This document shows positions 1,790 to 64,000 of a DNA stretch of 64,000 bases, piece by piece. This DNA is from Octopus vulgaris. Lineage: Eukaryota. Position 1 is the first letter of the stretch. The number at the start of each line of letters is the position of its first letter. The translations under genes and the position numbers were made by a program. The stretch spans positions 8,184,001-8,248,000 of the forward strand of contig OX597816.1 of assembly GCA_951406725.2 (NCBI GenBank), in the 5' to 3' direction. The notes beneath the pieces are model-generated. The model saw nothing but the letters and a program-made list of their open reading frames with translations. It ran no database searches and was not told the DNA's origin.

Positions 1790-2459
1790 CTTTACTTATA
1801 GCAAATAGTATACAGCGTGCTATAGAAATATCCATAGAACAACTTAGAACAATTCCAAACAGAAACACAAGAACAGATCTTACCATTTATAGAGACACAA
1901 AATCCGTGTCACCAAAATATCTTTCACATTGACAAAGCAAGCTTATCGGTCATTGCTGAAAGTAATGAATTGAAGGATATAATCACGGATCGAACCATGA
2001 TTCTAAGTAAAAGACTTGAAACAATTATTACCAAAGGCTAAATTTGACCTAAGCAACAACGACGAATCATTCATTGTATCGAACTGCAATGATAATCGAT
2101 GTGGTACAATCAATCAGCTCATACAAACCGGTCAATATAGGAACACAAAATCCGGAAGAATATTTGCAAATGCAAATATGAACTGCAAAGGCAGAAATTT
2201 AAGTTACAGCATCAAATGCCCGGATTGTGAAGAGATATACGTTGGTCAGACGGAGAATGCATTATCGGAACGTTCACATGTGCACCGACAGCAAATTAGG
2301 GACCCTGATGTCCGTCAGGCATCCCTTTAGGCAACCATCTGGTAACATGAGGTCTGAAAAACAGTTTATGATATTCCCATTCTACAAACTACACAACTCA
2401 AGTGAAGTGGAGTGGAAAGTCAGAGAAAAAAAAAATTATTGATAAATTCAAACCCGTTT

Positions 2460-4064: not shown

Positions 4065-4142
<78 letters not shown>

Positions 4143-4249
4143 TCCGTAATAATGAAGGGTGAAATTAATTAATTTGGAATAATTATCAATTACACCAAGT
4201 AGTCTTCGGCATGTAAAAGCCTCATTCGAGGAAAATTTAAGTAATACTA

Positions 4250-4333
4250 AGCAATAAAGGGTTTAGCAACGAATTGCCTTACCACAGACCGAATTTAGAA
4301 ATAGCAGTCAAAGAGTTATAGCTATTTCTTCTA

Positions 4334-4414
<81 letters not shown>

Positions 4415-4505
4415 TTTTTAGTAGAAGAAATAGCTATAACTCTTTGACTGCTATTTCTAAATTCGGTCTGTGGTAAGGCAATTCGTTGCTAAACCCTTTA
4501 TTGCT
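4250..4505. repeat. 88 bp inverted repeat (4250-4337 / 4418-4505) around a (TA)n tract; same family as 11825-12546
   Basis: AGCAATAAAGGGTTTAGCAACG...CTACTAA and its reverse complement; matches 12350-12430. Confidence 0.9.
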
Positions 4506-4506
4506 A

Positions 4507-4583
<77 letters not shown>

Positions 4584-5623: not shown

Positions 5624-6479
5624 TGAAAAAACGAAACTTGTCAATACGACATTTTAGCAAAAAATGATGGATTCGTATAGCGATAGACAGAACGCTATTA
5701 ATATTGTTTAAAAAAACGTTATATGATATAACGTCATAAGTAGCTAACAGAAAGAGTAGGGATATTAATAGTGAATGTTAAATATAAAGGAAATTAAAGT
5801 CTAAACTATATATATAATGATAGAGACTACTTATATACACTAAATGTATGCTTTTGCCAATGCTTACATCTGTATGCTCGTTCTATAACCGTGTTTACTA
5901 GAGTATTTTTAGAAAAAATAATGAAAAATAGCTCAGAATTGCAGAGAAGACAGAATTTCTTGCCTTTGTCATATGGTATCGAAATTGAGAGGATCAACCA
6001 TTCCAAATGAAATTGTTCATTGTGGTCTTTTAAAAGACCACAATGAACAATTTCATTTGGAATGGTCTTTTAAAAGACCACAATGAATAATTTCATTTGG
6101 AATGGTTGATCCTCTCAATTTCGATACCATATGACAAAGGCAAGAAATTCTGTCTTCTCTGCAATTCTGAGCTATTTTTCATTATTTTTTCTAAAAATAC
6201 TCTAGTAAACACGGTTATAGAACGAGCATACAGATGTAAGCATTGGCAAAAGCATACATTTAGTGTATATAAGTAGTCTCTATCATTATATATATAGTTT
6301 AGACTTTAATTTCCTTTATATTTAACATTCACTATTAATATCCCTACTCTTTCTGTTAGCTACTTATGACGTTATATCATATAACGTTTTTTTAAACAAT
6401 ATTAATAGCGTTCTGTCTATCGCTATACGAATCCATCATTTTTTGCTAAAATGTCGTATTGACAAGTTTCGTTTTTTCA

Positions 6480-10149: not shown

Positions 10150-11255
10150 ACATATAATTCATATTTACAGAAAACAAAAGACGATGGTGTAGGAACAACA
10201 AGAAAGTGTATTAGTTTAACGCTCGGGAAGAATGGAGAAGTCTTTTACGTTTCGAGTCTACCCTCTTCGAAAGAAAGGATTTAGACTGGGCAAAAAGGGG
10301 AGATAATGAAAAATAAATGGAGAGAGAAAAAATAATTTTTGTCGGGATTAACGGTTCAACATGACGAAAGACCCAGAAGGCTAAACGAAAGGGATATAAT
10401 TACGGTGATTGGGCAAACGAATTTATTCTCGCGTGTGTATGTGAGAATGGTGTGTGTGAGTGTGTATGTATGGATGGAGGTGAGTGTGTGAGTATGTATG
10501 TGTGGGGAGATGAAAAATATGTGGACCTGTGTGTGTATGTGTGTGACCCAGTGCGTACATTATGTGGAGTGATATGTGTTATATGTACTGGTATGTATGT
10601 GTGTATCCATATGGACGTGTGCATGTGTGCGATTATCAGGCCTTATGTGCTTGCGTGGGTGGGAGTGTGCATGTGGTGTGTGTTCTGTGTTGAATAGTGT
10701 GTAGGCTTGCTCGTATAGTGGTATGTGGGGCGACGCTACTGAAGGGTGTGTGTGGATGTGTGGATACTGGTGTGTGATGTGGATGATGAGAAGTATTCGG
10801 TGCCAGTGTGTGTGGAGTGGGGAGGTATTTGTGGGTGTGTGAAGTGTGTAATGAGTTGAATAGTGTGTATGGGTGTTCGTATAGTTGTGTTTCTATGGTG
10901 ACGGTACTGAGGTAGGCGGTATGCAGGAGTGTAGGTGGAGGGAAGTGACAGGTGAATGTAGGAGATGTATGGGAATCATTGTGAAGTGGTGTCACATGAA
11001 GAGATGTAGCGAGTTGAGCCCAAAAGGCGCGAAAGAACTAAGGGAGAAGATTAATTCCTGTTTACGGCGAAGGCGAGAGTCCGGGTCGCTCCTGCGCAGA
11101 GACAGTTCGAACACAGTCAAATGTTGTAGCGAATGACCGGTAGAGCGGAAATGGCGCGAGGCTGGGATGTCATTGCCGAGTGTTATGTCTCGAAGGTACT
11201 CCGCGACCCGATCAGCCAAGCGACGTCCCGTTTGACCGATGTACTGGGAAGGACA
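10150..11255 (-). mobile_element. Penelope-like element 3' end: GIY-YIG C-terminus plus long (CA)-rich 3' region with degenerate hammerhead
   Basis: CPSQYIGQTGRRLADRVAEYLRDI...PASRHF...RLRRKQELIFSL...PFGLN; HHR-like CTTT-CTTTCGA-AGAG..CTC-GAAACGTA-AAAG at 10242-10277 (-). Confidence 0.85.
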
Positions 11256-11261
11256 GATTGG

Positions 11262-11732
<471 letters not shown>

Positions 11733-11738
11733 CTATAT

Positions 11739-12540
11739 AAAAGGGGGATCTCAGTAAAAACACAGCACTTGAAAGGCAAACACAGACAGGTAAGAAAGAA
11801 AGAATGAAATGACGGCAATCTATCATTCGTTGCTAAACCCTTAATTACTTAGTATTACTTAAATTTTCCTCGAATGGGGCTTTTACATGCCGAAATCTAC
11901 TTGGTGTAATTGATAATTATCCCTAATTAATTAATTTCACCCTTTATTATTACTGATAACCATATTTTATCCCAGTAAATGACCGCAGCATTTTGTCTTG
12001 GCTACACGCGGGTGGAAGGGGGCTGGTGACACAAACTTTCATTCAAACTTTGAATTTCGTGGTACTGGTCATGCTTTGGCTCGCTCTGACACTGAGTTGA
12101 GATGATGCATTCTAGTATCTCAAAATTTAATATACAATTATTCATAATTGTAGTATCCTGCGCCGATGAGAGAAGAAGTTTGGGTAAAGTAGAATTTTCT
12201 AATTCTTATGCTCTCCTAAAACTTGATCTCGAAACGTACGTCCGTAGGTAACTTAAAATTGCATGATAGATTGCCGTCATTTCATTCTTTCTTTCTTACC
12301 TGTCTGTGTTTGCCTTTCAAGTGCTGTGTTTTTACTGAGATCCCCCTTTTAGTAGAAGGAATAGCTATATCTCTTTGACTGCTATTTCTAAATTCGGTGT
12401 GTTGGTGAGGCAATTCGTTGCTAAACCCTTAATTACTTAGTATTACTTAAATTTTCCTCGAATGGGGCTTTTACATGCCGAAATCTACTTGGTGTAATTG
12501 ATAATTATCCCTAATTAATTAATTTCACCCTTTATTATTA

Positions 12541-12546
<6 letters not shown>
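11739..12546 (+). mobile_element. HHR-bearing non-autonomous element: 588 bp unit plus 134 bp terminal redundancy plus 88 bp inverted 5' segment, within (TA)n
   Basis: Direct repeat 11825-11958 = 12413-12546; inverted repeat 11739-11826 / 12263-12350; HHR at 12157-12248. Confidence 0.8.
12157..12248 (+). ncRNA. Type I hammerhead motif (U4C core, 61 nt stem II domain)
   Basis: CCTGCG-CCGATGA-GAGA AG AAGTTT...AAACTT GA TCTC-GAAAC-GTAC-GTC-CGTAGG: 6 bp stem I, G10.1-C11.1, palindromic GTAC loop III, GUC site. Confidence 0.75.
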
Positions 12547-19735: not shown

Positions 19736-20358
19736 TAGTTAATCCAAACATGAAAACACAAAGAGCAAACATAACAACGCGGGGACGTGGAACAAGTACA
19801 GAGTTATTGGACGCTCAGGAAAGGAAAGAAAGAAGGAGGATTTAACGTTTCGAGCGGAGCTCTTCGTCAGAAACATAGGAAAAGGAAAGGTCCAAGGAAG
19901 GGAAGACGGAGGAAAAAAAAGAAAATCGTCAACAATACACACGCGGTCACATATTGAAATGGTCACATATTGAAATATGTGAGGTTGGAAAGAAGACACT
20001 TCCCGCACACCCATGCTTGTGTCTTTATATATGCGACATGACTTTCTTTCTAAAATAATGTGTGTGTGAGAGTGTGTGTGCGTGCGTGCGCGTGCGTGTG
20101 TATGTGTGTGTAAGAGCGCGCGCGTATGTGTGCGTTTATACATATATGTATGTACACACATACATACACACATACGTACGTACATACATACATACATACA
20201 TATATGTATAAACGCACACACACGCACACACACACACACACGCATACTATTTTGGAAAGAAAGTCATGTCGCATATATAAAGACACAAGCGTGGGTGTGC
20301 GGGAAGTGTCTTCTTTCCAACCACACGGTTCCGGGTTCAGAAACCCGTCGTGTGTATA

Positions 20359-23745: not shown

Positions 23746-24142
23746 TATATATAAGGTAAAGACCCCCTTCGGTCATGAATGACCATGGGATTGCACCTAG
23801 AAAGTTACCCTCCTAGACACAAGTCCGGGCAAGGTTGTTTATGGAAGACCAGCAGTCGCCCATGCATACCAGCCTCCCTTCTCCACGCCACCAGTGTTAT
23901 CCAAGGGAAAGACAAAGGTCGATACAGCTTGGCACCAGTGACGTCGCAACTCATTTCTACAGCTGAGTGAACTGGAGCAACGTGAAATAAAGTGCCTTGC
24001 TCAAGAACACAACACGCAGCCCGGTCCGGGATTCGAGCTCCGTGTTGTGTTCTTGAGTATATATATATATTTATATATATGTGTTGTGTGTGTGCATATA
24101 TACATACGTATATGTACATACATCTATACGTGTATATATATA

Positions 24143-24453
24143 TGTGGGGTGGGGCACAGGACGTCATGAAACGTGTACAACAATAAAGTACGAAGCCTGA
24201 GTACATGGAACATGAACTATACGCTTTCGACAAAACAGTTTCTCCCGCAAAGCAAATTAAATAAAATTTGGGATTTTGAGGAGGGTCAAAATAGGTAACA
24301 CAAACAGGACAGTGAAAGCAAACAGGAAGGACTGCTATTTAATTTGCTCTGCGGGAGCAACTGTCTTATCGAAAGTGTATAGTTCATGTCCCACGTACTC
24401 ATGCTTCGTACTTGTTTGCTGTACACGTTTCATGATGCCCTGTGTCCACATAT
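24143..24453. repeat. Diverged inverted repeat, about 120 bp arms (24143-24263 / 24336-24453)
   Basis: CATGAACTATACGCTTTCGA / TCGAAAGTGTATAGTTCATG and similar matches; visibly more diverged than other IRs. Confidence 0.8.
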
Positions 24454-24573: not shown

Positions 24574-24608
24574 GTTTAACGTTTCGAGCGGAGCTTTTCG
24601 TCAGAAAC
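24574..24608 (-). ncRNA. Minimal type I hammerhead ribozyme motif (second copy of the 19840 family)
   Basis: GTTT-CTGACGA-A-AAGC TCC GCTC-GAAAC-GTT-AAAC; one stem II mismatch. Confidence 0.75.
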
Positions 24609-25336: not shown

Positions 25337-28300
25337 GGAAGTCGGCTGGACGTGTTTTTCGCTTCTCTGACCAACCCAGCGTGACAACGGAAAAACTGGA
25401 AGATCTACTGTTTTCTGGAGAGTGAACCTTTCAATAGTTTTAAAAAAAAATAAATGAATAAATAAATAAAAAGAAGGGAAAACTATGCCCGGAGATAAAA
25501 CTATCAACAAAAAAAATACAGACGAATACAGATCTGCTAGGAAACTATGCCCGGAGATAAAACTATCAACAAAAAAAATACAGACGAATACAGATCTGCT
25601 TAGGAAACTGCGCTACGAACAATGTTTACGTGCAGAAAATTCTAAACTGACAGATCCGTCTCTTAATGTAAGAGTCGAAGCTCGTCATGCTTCAATGTCA
25701 ACAAAACAACCTACAATCCGCGATGGTCGACGAGCGGACTACAAAAGACCACGTACCCGAAAATTGAACCAAAGTCTGATTGAAAAATCAGCTACTGGAT
25801 CAAATCTTCCCGACACACAGGAGCTGGACGTACCCCGCAACTGGAATATTCCAACAGATGGCCATCCATGCTCGTCACCAAACACTCAAAAGAAAAAGAA
25901 GGAAAAATGGACTAGGGAAGATAATAAAGAAGTTCTTGCAGCCTTCTATCATGCCATATATTTCCTCACAGATAAATCGAACACTATACAAACCTACATA
26001 AACTGGAGACTGAAACACCCTGAAGTAAGACCCTACATAGACAGTAACAAACTCGCCAACGTCAGAAGAAACATTATAAAAAACAATTACTGACTGAAGT
26101 AGAGATTGACCAAATTAAACAAGCAGTAACGGATAGAATGAACGAAGCTGCAGCTAAAGAAGATAATACAGAGGAAATGATTATAGACCAGCTCAGAGCT
26201 AATACAAACGAAGTAAGGATTGAAAGAGTTAGTATAAGTGATAGGCAAAGTGAAATACTCCCTGAACCAAATATAAACACTAAGACAGATGAACATCAAA
26301 TAGATGAAGAAAGTCACACAAATATTGACCCGACAGAACTACATGAGCTAAAAAGTCAAATCATGATTGAATGGCTGAAAATTAAAGAAACCAGTATGGA
26401 TGAACGTGATACACTCCCTAAAATACGCAAATCTAACCAAAACATGAAAATAATTGGTAAAATCCGGCTTGCACTTAAGGATATAATTTCAGCTAATGAT
26501 GTTGATATCACAGATCTCAACCACCTATACTATGCATCCGCGAAAATCTCAACGATCCTATGTGGTGAAAAGATTAGAAAACGGCAACATTTCCACAAAA
26601 AGCCTTCTTGGCAAGAGCGTTTGCAACAACAAATTAAACTATTTAGATCTGACATTGAATATTTGAAAAACCTTAAGGTTCATAAGACTACCAAACCTGC
26701 AAAAACCCAAAAACTAATGAAAAAATATAATATGAAAACTATACTTGATATTGATGCCTACCATAGAAACCATCAAGCAAAAGGTATCTGCTAAAGCTGC
26801 CCGCATAGCGAGGTATGAAAAGCGTATTAGATTCTTCAGGGACAACAACATGTTCAAAAATAACCCCAAACATTTTTACAGGAAGATAGGAAAAACAACA
26901 GTTACTGTAAAGTCTGTACCATCAAAAGAAGAAGTGCAGGGATTTTGGAATAAAATTTGGGCAGAAGAAAAAACACACAGCGAAAAGGCCCCCTGGATTG
27001 ATAGAATATCTAAAGAACTGGACTCCTTAGAAGAGCAAAAGTGGGAGGGTGTCAAGGTAGAAGATATAAGATCTGCTCTCAGGAGGTCAAGCAAATGGAA
27101 GTCTCCAGGAAAGGATAAAATCCCTAACTTTTGGTTGAATGCCTTCCCAGAGAGCCATGAACTGCTAGCAGAACTTTACAACGATGTTTTGCAACACCCT
27201 AGTAGGATGCCTCCTTGGCTAGTTAATGGGTTAACATTCCTGCTTCCAAAAAGTGAAGAAACAAATGAACCCAAAAACTATAGACCCATAACCTGCTTAA
27301 CAACTATGTATAAAACACTAACATCTGTCCTGACGGAATATACCTATAGTTTTTTGACAGACAGCAGCATATTCCCTAATGAACAGAAAGGATGTAAACG
27401 TGGATCCTACGGTTGTAAAGATCAACTACTCATCAATAAGATGATCTTAGAAGATTGTCACAAACGACACAAAAACTTATCAATAGGCTGGATAGACTAT
27501 AAAAAGGCTTTTGATAGCCTTCCACATAGCTGGATTAATAAATGCCTAGAAATGTATAAGATAGCACCTGCTCTGCGAAACTTTTTGTCTGTAAGTATGA
27601 GATCATGGAGAACCACACTAACTTTGAATAGTGACAATGAATCTCTAAATGCTGGTGATGTAAAAATTTCATGTGGCATTTTCCAGGGTGACTCACTATC
27701 ACCGCTCCTCTTCTGTTTAGCCTTAATACCTCTCTCAAAACTGCTCAATGACGCGCAGTACGGATATAAAATGTTTGATAAAAATATAAATCATCTCATT
27801 TACATGGATGATTTAAAGATCTTTGCAAAAAAAGACCAACAACTCAAGGGCTTACTAGCGATTGTCAAACAATTCAGTGATGACATCAGAATGCAATTTG
27901 GCCTCGATAAATGCGCAAAAGCTACCTTTATCAAAGGAAAAATGACAGAAACATCTAACGTTAACCTTAACCAGCAGAATGTCATAAAAGAATTAGACCC
28001 AGCAGAGAACTACAAGTATCTAGGGGTAATTGAAGGAGAAGGAATAAGGCATTCAGAGATGAAGGAAAGGATCAGGAGAGAATGCTATCGCAGAGTAAGA
28101 GCAATACTCAAGACAGAGCTGAATGCGAGAAACAGGATCGAAGCGATCAATGCATTAGCCATAACCAGTCGTGACTTACAGTTTCAGTATCGTTAACTGG
28201 TCAATTACTGAAATATGTAATCTTGACAGAAAAATACGAAAATTGTTGACAATGCATAGAATGCACCACCCTAAGGCAGATACAGAACGACTTTATCTGC

Positions 28301-29565
28301 CAAGAAAAGAGGAGGCCGTGGACTTTTACAACTGGCAATAACAATGAAGATTGCTACAATTGGCCTAGACACCTACCTGAAAAACTCTGAGGACTGGATG
28401 TTAAAACTTGTCTCAAAACATGAAAACAAGAAAGCATCATACTCAGTAACAAAACAGGCAAAGGAATATCTAAGTGAATTCCGAATACAACAAATTTCGG
28501 AATTAGAGATAGACATACAAGAAACAGGCACAGAAAAAGCTAAGCGCATGAAAACCCGTGCTAAATCTGCGGCCTTAGATATTCTGAATGATAAATGGCA
28601 AGAAAAACCTCTCTATGGCAAATACCCAAAGAGAGCAAATAATGCAGATGTTGACAAAGCCCTGACCCATCAATGGCTAATGGCCTCTGGCTTAAAATCT
28701 GAAACAGAGGGGTTTATCATAGCAGCTCAAGATCAATGCCTACCAACAAGAAACTACCAGGTCAACATATTAAAGATCAGAAGCAGTCCAACGTGTCGTG
28801 TTTGCAAGCAACAAAATGAAACCATTGACCATGTGGTCTCCAAGTGCAGTCTTCTAGCGCCTACAGAGTATCTCAACAGGCACGATAGAGCTGCACAATA
28901 TATTCACTGGGTAATCTGTAAAAACCTGGATTTGCCCCATGAAAAAAACTGGTGGGAACACAAACCACCCCCAGTGCTTGAAAATGACCACATCTCACTC
29001 CTCTGGAACTTCACCATTCAAACTGACAGAAAGATAGATGCAAATAGGCCAGACATCATATTGAAAGACTTCAAACAAAGAACATGCCTCCTCATTGATA
29101 TGACTGTCCCAATCGATATAAACGTATCTGTCAAGACCTACCAAAAACTGAGCAAATATAAAGATCTTGAAATAGAAATCAGCAAAATGTGGAAGCTGAA
29201 GACTAAAACAATACCTGTTGTCATAGGTGCCCTGGGAATGATAGCAAAAGGGGCTGATAGCTACCTAACTCAGATACCAGGAAACCCAAAAATGGCAGAA
29301 ATTCAAAAGATAGTGCTCATGGGAACTGCTCATATCCTACGCAAAATACTTTCTATGTAATCTCAAGGTTTAAAACAAACATAATTTTCGGTTTAAAAAA
29401 AAAAAATCTTTTTTTTTAGACATTCATTAGTACAACACCCCACCCCCCAAATATATGGCACACTAGGCATAACAACAACATGAACTTCCAACCCTGTTGT
29501 CTCTTGAGGTCTCTGGGTGAGACTTGGAGCCAACTTGTACTAATATAAAGCAAAAGTCAAACATA

Positions 29566-41286: not shown

Positions 41287-42269
41287 CTATCTAGCTATCT
41301 ATCTATCTTGTCCCCCCTCTCTCTCTCTTTCTCGCTCATTGATTATACACAACCCTCAACAGATAACTCTATGGTTTGTCCTTTTTTAACTGTTTAACTG
41401 ACTTTTCCCCATTGTTTAAAATTCTTGGAATTTTATATGAAGTTGTAAGCTCTTTAAAAAGAGCCACAATATTCCCCTAAAATATCTCGTTCAAGAAAGC
41501 TGGAGGTAGCTATCGGGGCAGGCCATTTCGTTTAAGCAAGTGCATGTATGTGTGACAGCCCTCGTTCTTGGTTGAGTGTACAATTCTAGCAGCCCAGCTG
41601 AAAGGTGAGTGGGGGCGTGGGTGCAACATAACAAAGGGGAATAATCAGGACAAAAATCCGTAACTAACAGCAACGGGAAACCGGTTCAACGCGAACATGG
41701 TCGGCTCGTTAGCGACTGAATTCGTAATCCCCACCGAGATTGGACAAGAGATTGGAAGGAGGGAAATTTGGAGACATACTGCGATGTGAAAAGAAAAATT
41801 CTTTAAAGTGCGGATGAATTCAGCGTGTGTCCTATTGATGTTGTTGAAATTCCAATGAAGGAACCTTGGATCAAGATTAGAAACCGACTCTTTCCCTATT
41901 GTCAGATAAAGGGGAAACAGTCAAATCATTGATGGAGATGTTACTGGGAAATACACACATATATACATACATACTTTGTATCATTTTAGCTTTCGAATGA
42001 TGCCACCCCGCTAGCTAGGCGAGCAGACCAACAATTATCCATGCACATACACACCCCGATCGGAAGACTAGTCCGTCACAGGTTAAGCCTTTTACAGCCG
42101 AGGAGACTGGAGCAACGTGAAAAGGTGTATTTTGCTCAAGAACAAAACGCACCGCTCGATCCGGGATTTGAACCCTCGATCTAGCGATCGTGATTGCAAC
42201 ACCCTAACCACAAGGCTATATATATGTAAATTTGTAAATTAAAGAATGTATGCAATAGAAAAGGTAAAG

Positions 42270-58823: not shown

Positions 58824-59722
58824 TTGGGTTGTCCGGAAAGTTCGTGCCGATTTATAGTAGCTTACCTTTCGACTTATTTTAGAACATGTTTGAGTCCATA
58901 AAATAGGATTTGACTACACCTCCATTTAGAGCACTGTTTAAGCTATCTTTTCGTGGAAGAAGGTTTATGTTCCTATAACCTGTGTTAATTCTGTAACCCT
59001 TTAAAATGGAAGATAAGAAAGTTCATTTTCGGCACTTGATGCTTTTCTTTTTTCCGTAAAGGGAAAAATGCCTCACAAGCAACCAAAGAAATATACGCAA
59101 TTTACGGTGATGTTTCTTTATCCGAAAGAACTGTACGGAAGTGGTTCGCAAGGTTCCAAACTGGAGATTGTAGCCTTATTGATAAAGAGCAATCAGGCAG
59201 ACCATCCACTACAGATGGTGACCAAATCAAGTCATTAATTGAGAATAACCCACATTGCACAACCCGAGAATTGGCAGAAAGCTTCAACCTATCAAAATCC
59301 GTCGTTCATGAGCACCTGGTAAAGCTTAGGTACACAAATCGCTACGATATTTGGGTACCACATGAGTTGAGTGAGAAGAACCTTTTGGATCGCATTTCCA
59401 TCTGTGAACGGAATGAAAACGCGCCTTTTTAAAAGCAAATTGTGACAGGTGATGAGAAATGGATTATCTACCGAAATGTTCAGAGAAAGCGACCCTGGAG
59501 TAAGCGACATGAGCCACCTTAGCCACCCCAAAAGCGATTCTTCACCCTAAAAAAGTCTTGCTTTGTGTCTGGTGGGATTGGAAAGGAATTCTGTACTATG
59601 AGCTCCCAAGAAACCAGACAATTAATTCTGAGAAATACTGCGCACAAGTGGACGAGTTAAAAGCAGCAATTCAAGAGAAACGTCCAGAATTGGCCAACAG
59701 GAAGGGTGTTGTTTTCCAAGAC
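58824..59722 (+). mobile_element. mariner (Tc1/mariner) transposon, 3'-truncated, pseudogenised (mellifera-like)
   Basis: TA followed by TTGGGTTGTCCGGAAAGTTC TIR; from ATG 59006 MEDKKVHFRHLM...SGRP...WVPHEL...IVTGDEKWI...HPKKVLLCVWWD with frameshifts and a stop. Confidence 0.92.
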
Positions 59723-63315: not shown

Positions 63316-63333
63316 AAATATATATATATATAT

Positions 63334-63779
63334 ATATAGTGGTCGTATACTGTCAACTCAATGTGACAGTCCCGTAAGGGAATTACACCACCGCCATTTA
63401 ACCCTAGGAAACATCGACGTCTCCTGTCGGCTTTGACACATTTTCCGTGTCCTTATATTTGCAAAGGGGAGGCAAGCAATCACCCCGCCAGCTGGGACTA
63501 AGCACCTGAAGACATATGTTTCTGAGTCTATTGCTCGTCGTCAGTTCAGGGTAGCCTGCCTCGCTCGCTGAGATGACCGCAACCTCTTCGCAAATATATC
63601 ATATTTTCAGTAAAATTTATTTACTGATCACCGAAATTAGAAATATTGAATTTCTAAATGTCTTAGAGAGACATGAGCGGTGGTGGAGCGATATAGTGGT
63701 CGTATACTGTCAACTCAATGTGACAGTCCCGTAAAGGAATTACACCACCGCCATTTAGCCCTAGGAAACATCGATGTCT
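63334..63779 (-). mobile_element. Retrozyme-like element: 357 bp unit plus 89 bp terminal redundancy with central HHR
   Basis: 63334-63422 matches 63691-63779 (3 mismatches seen); HHR at 63505-63550; adjoins (TA)n. Confidence 0.8.
63505..63550 (-). ncRNA. Type I hammerhead ribozyme with intact core
   Basis: CCTGAA-CTGACGA-C GAG CAATAGA CTC A-GAAAC-ATAT-GTC-TTCAGG: 6 bp stem I, palindromic ATAT loop III, GUC site (cut between 63511 and 63510). Confidence 0.85.
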
Positions 63780-64000
63780 TCTACCATAGTGTCTTCTGCC
63801 ATAGCCTCGGGCCGACTAAAGCCTTGTGAGTGGATTTGGTAGACGGAAACTGAAAGAAGGCCGTCGTGTATATGTATATATATGTATGTGTGTGTGTGTA
63901 TGTTTGTGTGTCTGTGTTTGTCCCCCCAAGATTACTTGACAACCGATGCTGGTGTGTTTAGGTTCCTGTAACTTAGTGGTTCGACCGATAGAGTAAGTAC

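Follow-up and report, generated by a model that had tools for sequence, protein, structure and literature searches.

Layout of the 357-bp repeat

The window, by which we mean the whole 64-kb stretch of DNA that was analysed, carries near its right end a non-coding unit of 357 bp with 44.8% G+C, together with a truncated copy of itself joined head to tail. The locus extends over 1.24 units and bears one ribozyme motif. Its left end abuts a (TA)10 tract, and neither a TA tract nor a target duplication was found on the 5' side of the 357-bp copy. The features are the following.

63319..63338, no strand: (TA)10 tract at the 3' end of the element in RNA sense (minus); likely target and primer site, a role proposed after PMC8557442
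63334..63690, minus: full 357-bp unit, non-coding and strongly self-paired (repeat, ORF and folding analyses)
63381..63390, minus: 10-nt motif common to the 357-bp unit and a 588-bp hammerhead element (shuffle test, post hoc)
63454..63598, minus: continuation of helix I as a predicted long, interrupted rod, which keeps the sides of the cut together (folding; self-match of 63454-63469 with 63583-63598)
63505..63550, minus: type I hammerhead motif, predicted cut 63511/63510 (motif descriptor, fold prediction)
63634..63690, minus: candidate "tail" of the Penelope-like element (PLE) type, 57-62 nt, between the 3' end of the locus and a second fixed end (suggested by loose ends in relatives)
63691..63774, minus: 5'-truncated upstream copy of 84 bp with 2 differences, a pseudo-LTR-type partial tandem (repeat alignment)
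63775..64000, plus: SINE-like repeat lacking its 5' part; its edge shows a 15-bp duplication and an 8-base partial microhomology to the unit (repeat comparison)

The direct repeats at 63334-63425 and 63691-63782 are spaced by 357 and are 96% alike over 92 nt, which confirms the period given in the first-pass annotation. Its repeat length of 89 bp is about right. Compared base by base, the repeat measures 84 bp with two differences (63378 and 63401); the eight bases that follow match the unit in part and agree as well with the 5' edge of the repeat at 63775..64000, which we take to be a SINE, so that the last bases of the longer figure represent microhomology. A 15-bp duplication lies at the SINE edge (63775-63804). 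The SINE had been held to cut the right repeat, which is possible, but a 5' joining by microhomology fits equally well.

No ORF had been reported, and in the unit read as a circle the longest ATG-started frame indeed has 53 codons and the longest stop-free one 64. The 273 non-coding bases between the repeats hold no reverse transcriptase or GIY-YIG ORF.

The hammerhead motif

The hammerhead lies on the minus strand as it had been described, with a CUGACGA/GAAA core, a 6-bp helix I, a GUC site in mid-unit and a C-A mismatch at 10.1-11.1. Helix I pairs 63550-63545 with 63510-63505, the CUGACGA box occupies 63544-63538 and the GAAA box lies within 63522-63519. Helix II has 3 bp and the opposed C-A, and helix III has 2 bp and a palindromic loop; the cut after GUC is predicted between 63511 and 63510. 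A strict descriptor run on both strands of the 64 kb matched at 63550-63505 alone, and a relaxed one gave two matches in the window. Among 5000 dinucleotide shuffles of the element, none contained the motif with a helix I of at least 6 bp and six contained any relaxed match; shuffled 64-kb windows yielded 0.015 motifs each (200 shuffles). Rfam returned no hammerhead at E values up to 1, its best hit being a partial type II match of 12 bits (E 8.6). The helix sizes are those of a canonical type I hammerhead and the core is complete, and helix II ends in C-A in most relatives. The word "intact" used earlier thus applies to the core alone, and the ribozyme is a predicted motif.

In the monomer, helices I and II have pairing probabilities of 0.70-0.97 and helix III one of 0.01, and for the helix III palindrome, pairing between two copies is predicted at -7.6 kcal/mol. 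Helix III is therefore predicted to be stable solely in a dimer, in which form the ribozyme would mainly cut. A locus with one ribozyme would offer one cut, and we infer that it would release no 357-nt monomer.

Relatives in public sequencing runs

The run index lists 24 runs from 11 studies and under 4 organism labels, 20 of them containing part of the stretch, in contigs and not in raw reads. No RNA run is listed there as containing it, which speaks neither for nor against expression. Four of the 24 (X1, X2, X11 and X16, two organism labels) were aligned to the monomer at 80% likeness. All four gave matching contigs, numbering 1489, 1850, 175 and 32. A single-copy unit, which would have spoken against the first-pass annotation, is excluded by the 1489 and 1850 contigs, which come from two DNA-type runs. 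The depth profiles of the runs guessed to be RNA follow that of DNA (log correlation with X1 of 0.97 and 0.88); these two runs may be DNA, or host transcripts carrying fragments, and allow neither expression nor silence to be inferred.

The C-A mismatch at 10.1-11.1 is the majority state among close relatives and not damage to the copy at 63334. By depth, U-A makes up 25% in X1, 18% in X2 and 40% in X11, and the ribozyme may be weak, because the paired state is in the minority.

Ends and joints were drawn from 24 of 250 loose ends and from 32 of 3584 pieces; joints into the TA-rich start of the aligned stretch were excluded from the tally. Five of the nine listed joints connect opposite strands, each being a single contig at 80% likeness. 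Long X16 contigs, again single ones among the pieces listed, exit the unit toward its 5' side at 63444, 63478, 63498, 63555 and 63647. Such inversions and 5' truncations, each seen on single contigs, are PLE traits. The junction from 63690 to the unit start also occurs in at least three contigs from other places and is thus a feature of the family. None of the 32 pieces listed spans the whole unit, and a two-ribozyme array is not among them.

A second fixed boundary lies at 63634, where at least 16, 15 and 3 contigs of three runs end. The flanks there are unlike each other and AT-rich (agreement 0.48-0.64), reaching up to 255 letters in X16. This end lies 57-62 nt from the first, and among the pieces listed the two never share a contig. 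The relatives thus point to a pair of fixed 3' ends and not to a freely permuted unit.

Summed depth on the arc from 63634 through the junction to about 63478 was 15.6, 19.7, 21.2 and 28.8 times higher than at 63505-63621, contig depth being no copy number and unable to rank parts of the unit. The commonest loose end behind 63478 remains homologous over the 30 letters listed, up to about the cut site, but its helix I strand is a different one. Most copies might stop at or before the cut, of which the depth arc gives a mere hint; it may simply reflect a large subfamily with a diverged ribozyme arc that is less than 80% alike.

Eighteen X2 contigs, among those listed, leave the unit at 63671-63672 into one common unlike sequence (agreement 0.69-0.77), which is a candidate for an older subfamily or for a longer partner element. 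If this conserved sequence led into a longer element, the unit could be no more than the pseudo-LTR of a long PLE with coding capacity, of which the locus would hold two truncated pieces in tandem, in keeping with the description of PLEs as bearing hammerheads in their pseudo-LTRs and leaving mostly truncated copies (PMC4209133). We consider this unlikely. The copies abut head to tail with a period of 357 and without an ORF, the unit folds as one domain, and one in 100 of the contigs aligned in X1, X2 and X11 runs on into unlike sequence for at least 20 letters, the contigs being short. The helix sizes, moreover, are canonical and not those of the minimal PLE type presented in PMC4209133.

Exact-pattern scans for the unit found no copy in metagenome contigs and none in prokaryote genomes. 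Two viral contigs contained a 17-base pattern, a word so short that the matches were taken as chance.

Folding of the unit and pairing of variants

The minus-strand monomer folds with a z score of -6.8 in linear and -7.8 in circular form, against -4.2 for the plus strand. The z score alone is not decisive, because a z of -7 is also attained by two of the 20 control stretches drawn from the window. These two, 6001-6357 and 24001-24357, fold as strongly as the unit (z -7.6 and -7.0, 12 shuffles), and the former contains a 40-bp tandem with a palindrome. In the predicted fold the whole 357-bp unit forms a single domain, with the ribozyme at the tip of a long rod, and a monomer reaching from cut to cut holds both of its ends in helix I.

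Of 71 variants, 40 were listed and 30 of these were entered first, leaving aside eight of low frequency in X1 and X2 as well as two that resemble misalignment at a small insertion private to the copy. In the set of 30, the minus-strand pair is kept at 16 of 17 paired variant sites, nearly always through G-U states, and four pairs vary on both sides. With all 40 listed variants included, 19 of 26 keep the pair (P 0.064 against random transitions), and 10 of 14 do so on the plus strand (P 0.14). Variants in the rod keep the pairs 63463/63589, 63464/63588 and 63478/63578, and the 40 variants spare all 15 core positions of the hammerhead, a weak indication. The structure thus appears to be mostly kept at the RNA level in relatives of the unit. 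A DNA-hairpin element of the MITE or Helitron type appears less likely, given the one-strand G-U variants and the PLE-like inversions and truncations.

On the plus strand, 63676-63753 spans the unit junction and can be drawn by eye as a four-way junction of short hairpins with a closing stem of 9-10 bp, which received no score from ARAGORN or Rfam. It covers both candidate start regions and could be a protein-binding structure. A tRNA-derived SINE, suggested by a plus-strand cloverleaf drawn by eye across the junction, was dropped; ARAGORN found no tRNA gene in the window and there was no Rfam match.

A 588-bp element and other contents of the window

A second non-coding element occupies 11732-12543 on the plus strand. 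It has a period of 588 bp, an identical direct repeat of 131 bp, an identical inverted repeat of 89 bp and (TA)n on both sides. Its type I hammerhead, in mid-unit at about 12157-12248, departs from the core at one position and has a loop II of 53 nt; the element folds with a z score of -6.5. Unrelated to the 357-bp unit but of the same layout, it represents a second retrozyme-like family of the PLE type.

The two units have a 10-mer in common, located 42 and 44 nt from the TA tract; this was reached in 23 of 20000 shuffles, the motif having been noticed first and tested afterwards. Their best local alignment is a match of 16 of 17 positions, reached in six of 1000 shuffles and likewise tested post hoc. 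Near-matches to the 357-bp unit at 4288, 4467 and 12399 were rejected as copies, as they belong to the 588-bp family, and so was a match at 42004, which has no further likeness. Two short stretches, 4139-4336 and 4416-4510, belong to the 588-bp family with 92-93% likeness. They face opposite ways between TA tracts and end at about the same internal point as the inverted repeat of the 588-bp element.

The recurrence of this layout bears on whether the 84-bp repeat could be the product of local DNA duplication or recombination at the SINE edge, next to a vestigial ribozyme. Microhomology and the 15-bp duplication at the right edge would agree with such an event, as would the predominance of C-A in helix II. 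That the 588-bp element has the same layout independently, that the junction sequence recurs at other places and that no listed variant touches the core positions all speak against it, and we regard it as very improbable.

Other remnants were seen in the window. A PLE-type pseudo-LTR fragment at 19738-19900 (minus) contains a minimal hammerhead (19870-19844) that lies some 130 nt away from a TA tract, and a piece near 24600 is related to this fragment by translation and an 11-base match. GIY-YIG endonuclease-like remnants at 2007-2330 (plus) and 10992-11275 (minus) probably come from PLEs of two kinds; Pfam gave an E value of 0.008, below the cut-off, for one of these frames and nothing for the other, with Atlas values of 0.95 and 0.96. 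A near-complete non-LTR retrotransposon in several frames spans 25470-29360 (plus; RVT_1 E 1.4e-27, zf-RVT E 1e-05) and is followed by (AAT)n, and the N-terminal fragment of a Mariner/Mos1-type transposase lies at 59040-59432 (plus; HTH_48 E 1.2e-13). Within the 64-kb window, no 3' sequence shared with an autonomous helper PLE was found. Ten short probes from the two units gave chance matches only with the Naiad, Chlamys and Hydra sequences in the supplement of PMC8557442.

Comparison with known systems

Non-LTR retrozymes have been described from coral, mussel and axolotl (PMC7229834). Vertebrate retrozymes are presented as PLE derivatives by Li et al. 2026 (10.64898/2026.07.22.740005), whose working definition is two complete ribozymes in tandem and who also count single-unit "monomer" copies; the locus at 63334 would count as a monomer in these terms. 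With metazoan non-LTR retrozymes (PMC7229834; 10.64898/2026.07.22.740005), such as the 350-390 bp units of Mytilus, it has in common a short, non-coding and strongly self-paired unit with less than 50% G+C, a canonical type I hammerhead, many copies and co-occurring PLEs. Its size and composition fall within the range used for retrozymes (150-450 bp, below 50% G+C, no protein). It differs from them in its extent of 1.24 units with one ribozyme and in the C-A of helix II. A (TA)n target and two fixed 3' ends are not described in the retrozyme sections compared.

PLE copies are characterised as 5'-truncated, partially tandem, often inverted and biased to microsatellites, the non-autonomous forms likewise (PMC8557442). 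The 357-bp family resembles non-autonomous PLE derivatives such as MRC1/Chlamys and the (TA)n-targeting Naiad, Hydra and Neptune (Craig et al. 2021, PMC8557442) in its partial tandem, 5' truncation, inverted pieces, microsatellite target and lack of a clear target duplication. It differs from Naiads in its canonical-type hammerhead, and the short probes match none of the Naiad or Hydra elements listed there. In work with a purified PLE, cDNA synthesis began within the RNA on the 3' side of the hammerhead, at a pair of sites delimiting a tail, and uncut RNA served as a template in vitro (PMC11167929). A start 3' of the hammerhead, two nearby tail-defining sites (putative ones in the 357-bp unit) and AT-rich targets are thus traits in common with the Poseidon PLE of Anolis (Frangieh et al. 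2024, PMC11167929). Poseidon, in contrast, is autonomous and has a tail of 30-40 bp instead of 57-62, and the part of that report compared here does not describe copy ends accumulating at the cut site in the genome. Base pairing between RNA and DNA where copying starts is not put forward as the rule of targeting, since in vitro the anole PLE needs no homology to begin (PMC11167929).

The palindromic helix III recalls the dimer-type design described for minimal hammerheads of PLE pseudo-LTRs (Cervera and de la Pena 2014, PMC4209133). One drawing of the motif also has the extra base between positions 9 and 10.1 found in these hammerheads. Unlike them, it has a 6-bp helix I with an extension, a short helix II and a further base between 11.1 and G12.

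The SINEs and microsatellites of the window have an octopus-like look, so that the host may be an octopus. A search of the openly accessible literature found no report of such a hammerhead or retrozyme element from a cephalopod, and "cephalop" has no match in the main text of PMC7229834. The 357-bp family adds to a known kind, for which no cephalopod example was found in the open literature.

Proposed copying route

We propose that the 357-bp unit is probably a non-autonomous, retrozyme-like passenger that is copied by the enzyme of a PLE. Read in RNA sense, the locus consists of the truncated upstream copy and the full unit, then (TA)n, which matches PLE insertion anatomy, and the targets, (TA)10 at the locus and AT-rich flanks at 63634 in relatives, are of the PLE type. 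The PLE remnants in the window, the like layout of the 588-bp element and the derivation of vertebrate retrozymes from PLEs (10.64898/2026.07.22.740005) support this reading, while the lack of a helper match to the short probes counts against it. Judged by its sequence, the locus would work like a retrozyme monomer and at the same time as a non-autonomous PLE-type element.

The first-pass annotation saw in it a candidate circular-RNA retrozyme, inserted as a permuted 1.25-mer. Much of this description holds, as the unit is multi-copy, non-coding, retrozyme-sized and folded, carries a type I hammerhead, lies at (TA)n and reflects more than one round of copying; freely variable permutation points were not seen, and two fixed 3' ends are suggested instead. 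The mid-unit, "permuted" position of the ribozyme needs no circle, being what a PLE reverse transcriptase normally yields by priming internally, 3' of the hammerhead (PMC11167929). Neither does the 1.25-mer single out a circle, because partial tandems are a normal outcome of PLE insertion (PMC8557442).

A true non-LTR retrozyme, in which arrays of two or more ribozymes elsewhere would give rise to an abundant 357-nt circle, joined at 63511/63510 and copied round, is a possibility to which we give distinctly less weight, and as the circle-specific version it overlaps with the PLE-borne reading. Size, G+C and helix sizes fit the mussel units of 350-390 bp, whose circles are abundant (PMC7229834). 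The cut-to-cut monomer is predicted to close its ends in helix I on a long rod, the 63690-to-start junction recurs in three other contigs, and circles have been proposed as the source of PLE tandems (PMC4209133). Against this stand the lack of a unit-spanning contig among the 32 of 3584 pieces listed, the single ribozyme at the locus with its C-A in helix II, and two fixed ends in place of free permutation. In addition, uncut RNA serves the anole PLE as a template in vitro (PMC11167929), and of nine Xenopus dimers only one was reported as cleaved (10.64898/2026.07.22.740005).

For the passenger copied by a PLE enzyme, the route might be as follows. A source locus with head-to-tail units would be transcribed on the ribozyme strand, and a PLE endonuclease would nick (TA)n or AT-rich DNA. 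The reverse transcriptase would then start inside the RNA at either of two fixed positions, which lie 172-177 and about 234 nt to the 3' side of the cut. Most events would break off before the cut site or on reaching it, giving fragments that lack the ribozyme and are sometimes inverted. The event at 63334 would have read the full unit and 84 further bases, which would presuppose a tandem RNA left uncut, a jump between templates or a circle; the copy that resulted, with its single ribozyme, is most likely a dead end, a monomer that would not release unit-length RNA.

A more far-reaching version, which we hold to be doubtful, joins these observations. Copy ends would record the RNA template used in vivo, with two fixed starts, about 15-30 times more stops at a self-cleaved 5' end than passes, and passers that read round a ligated circle; the shared 10-base and 17-base motifs would form the recognition code of one TA-targeting PLE that serves several retrozyme families.

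Significance

How animal retrozymes enter DNA and what role the hammerhead plays in PLEs are questions called open in PMC7229834, PMC8557442 and PMC11167929. A map of copy ends could discriminate between cut RNA, uncut tandems and circles as the template; should it show nothing special, the family would be one more retrozyme-like family. In the 357-bp family, RNA features of the retrozyme type meet insertion scars of the PLE type within a single element.
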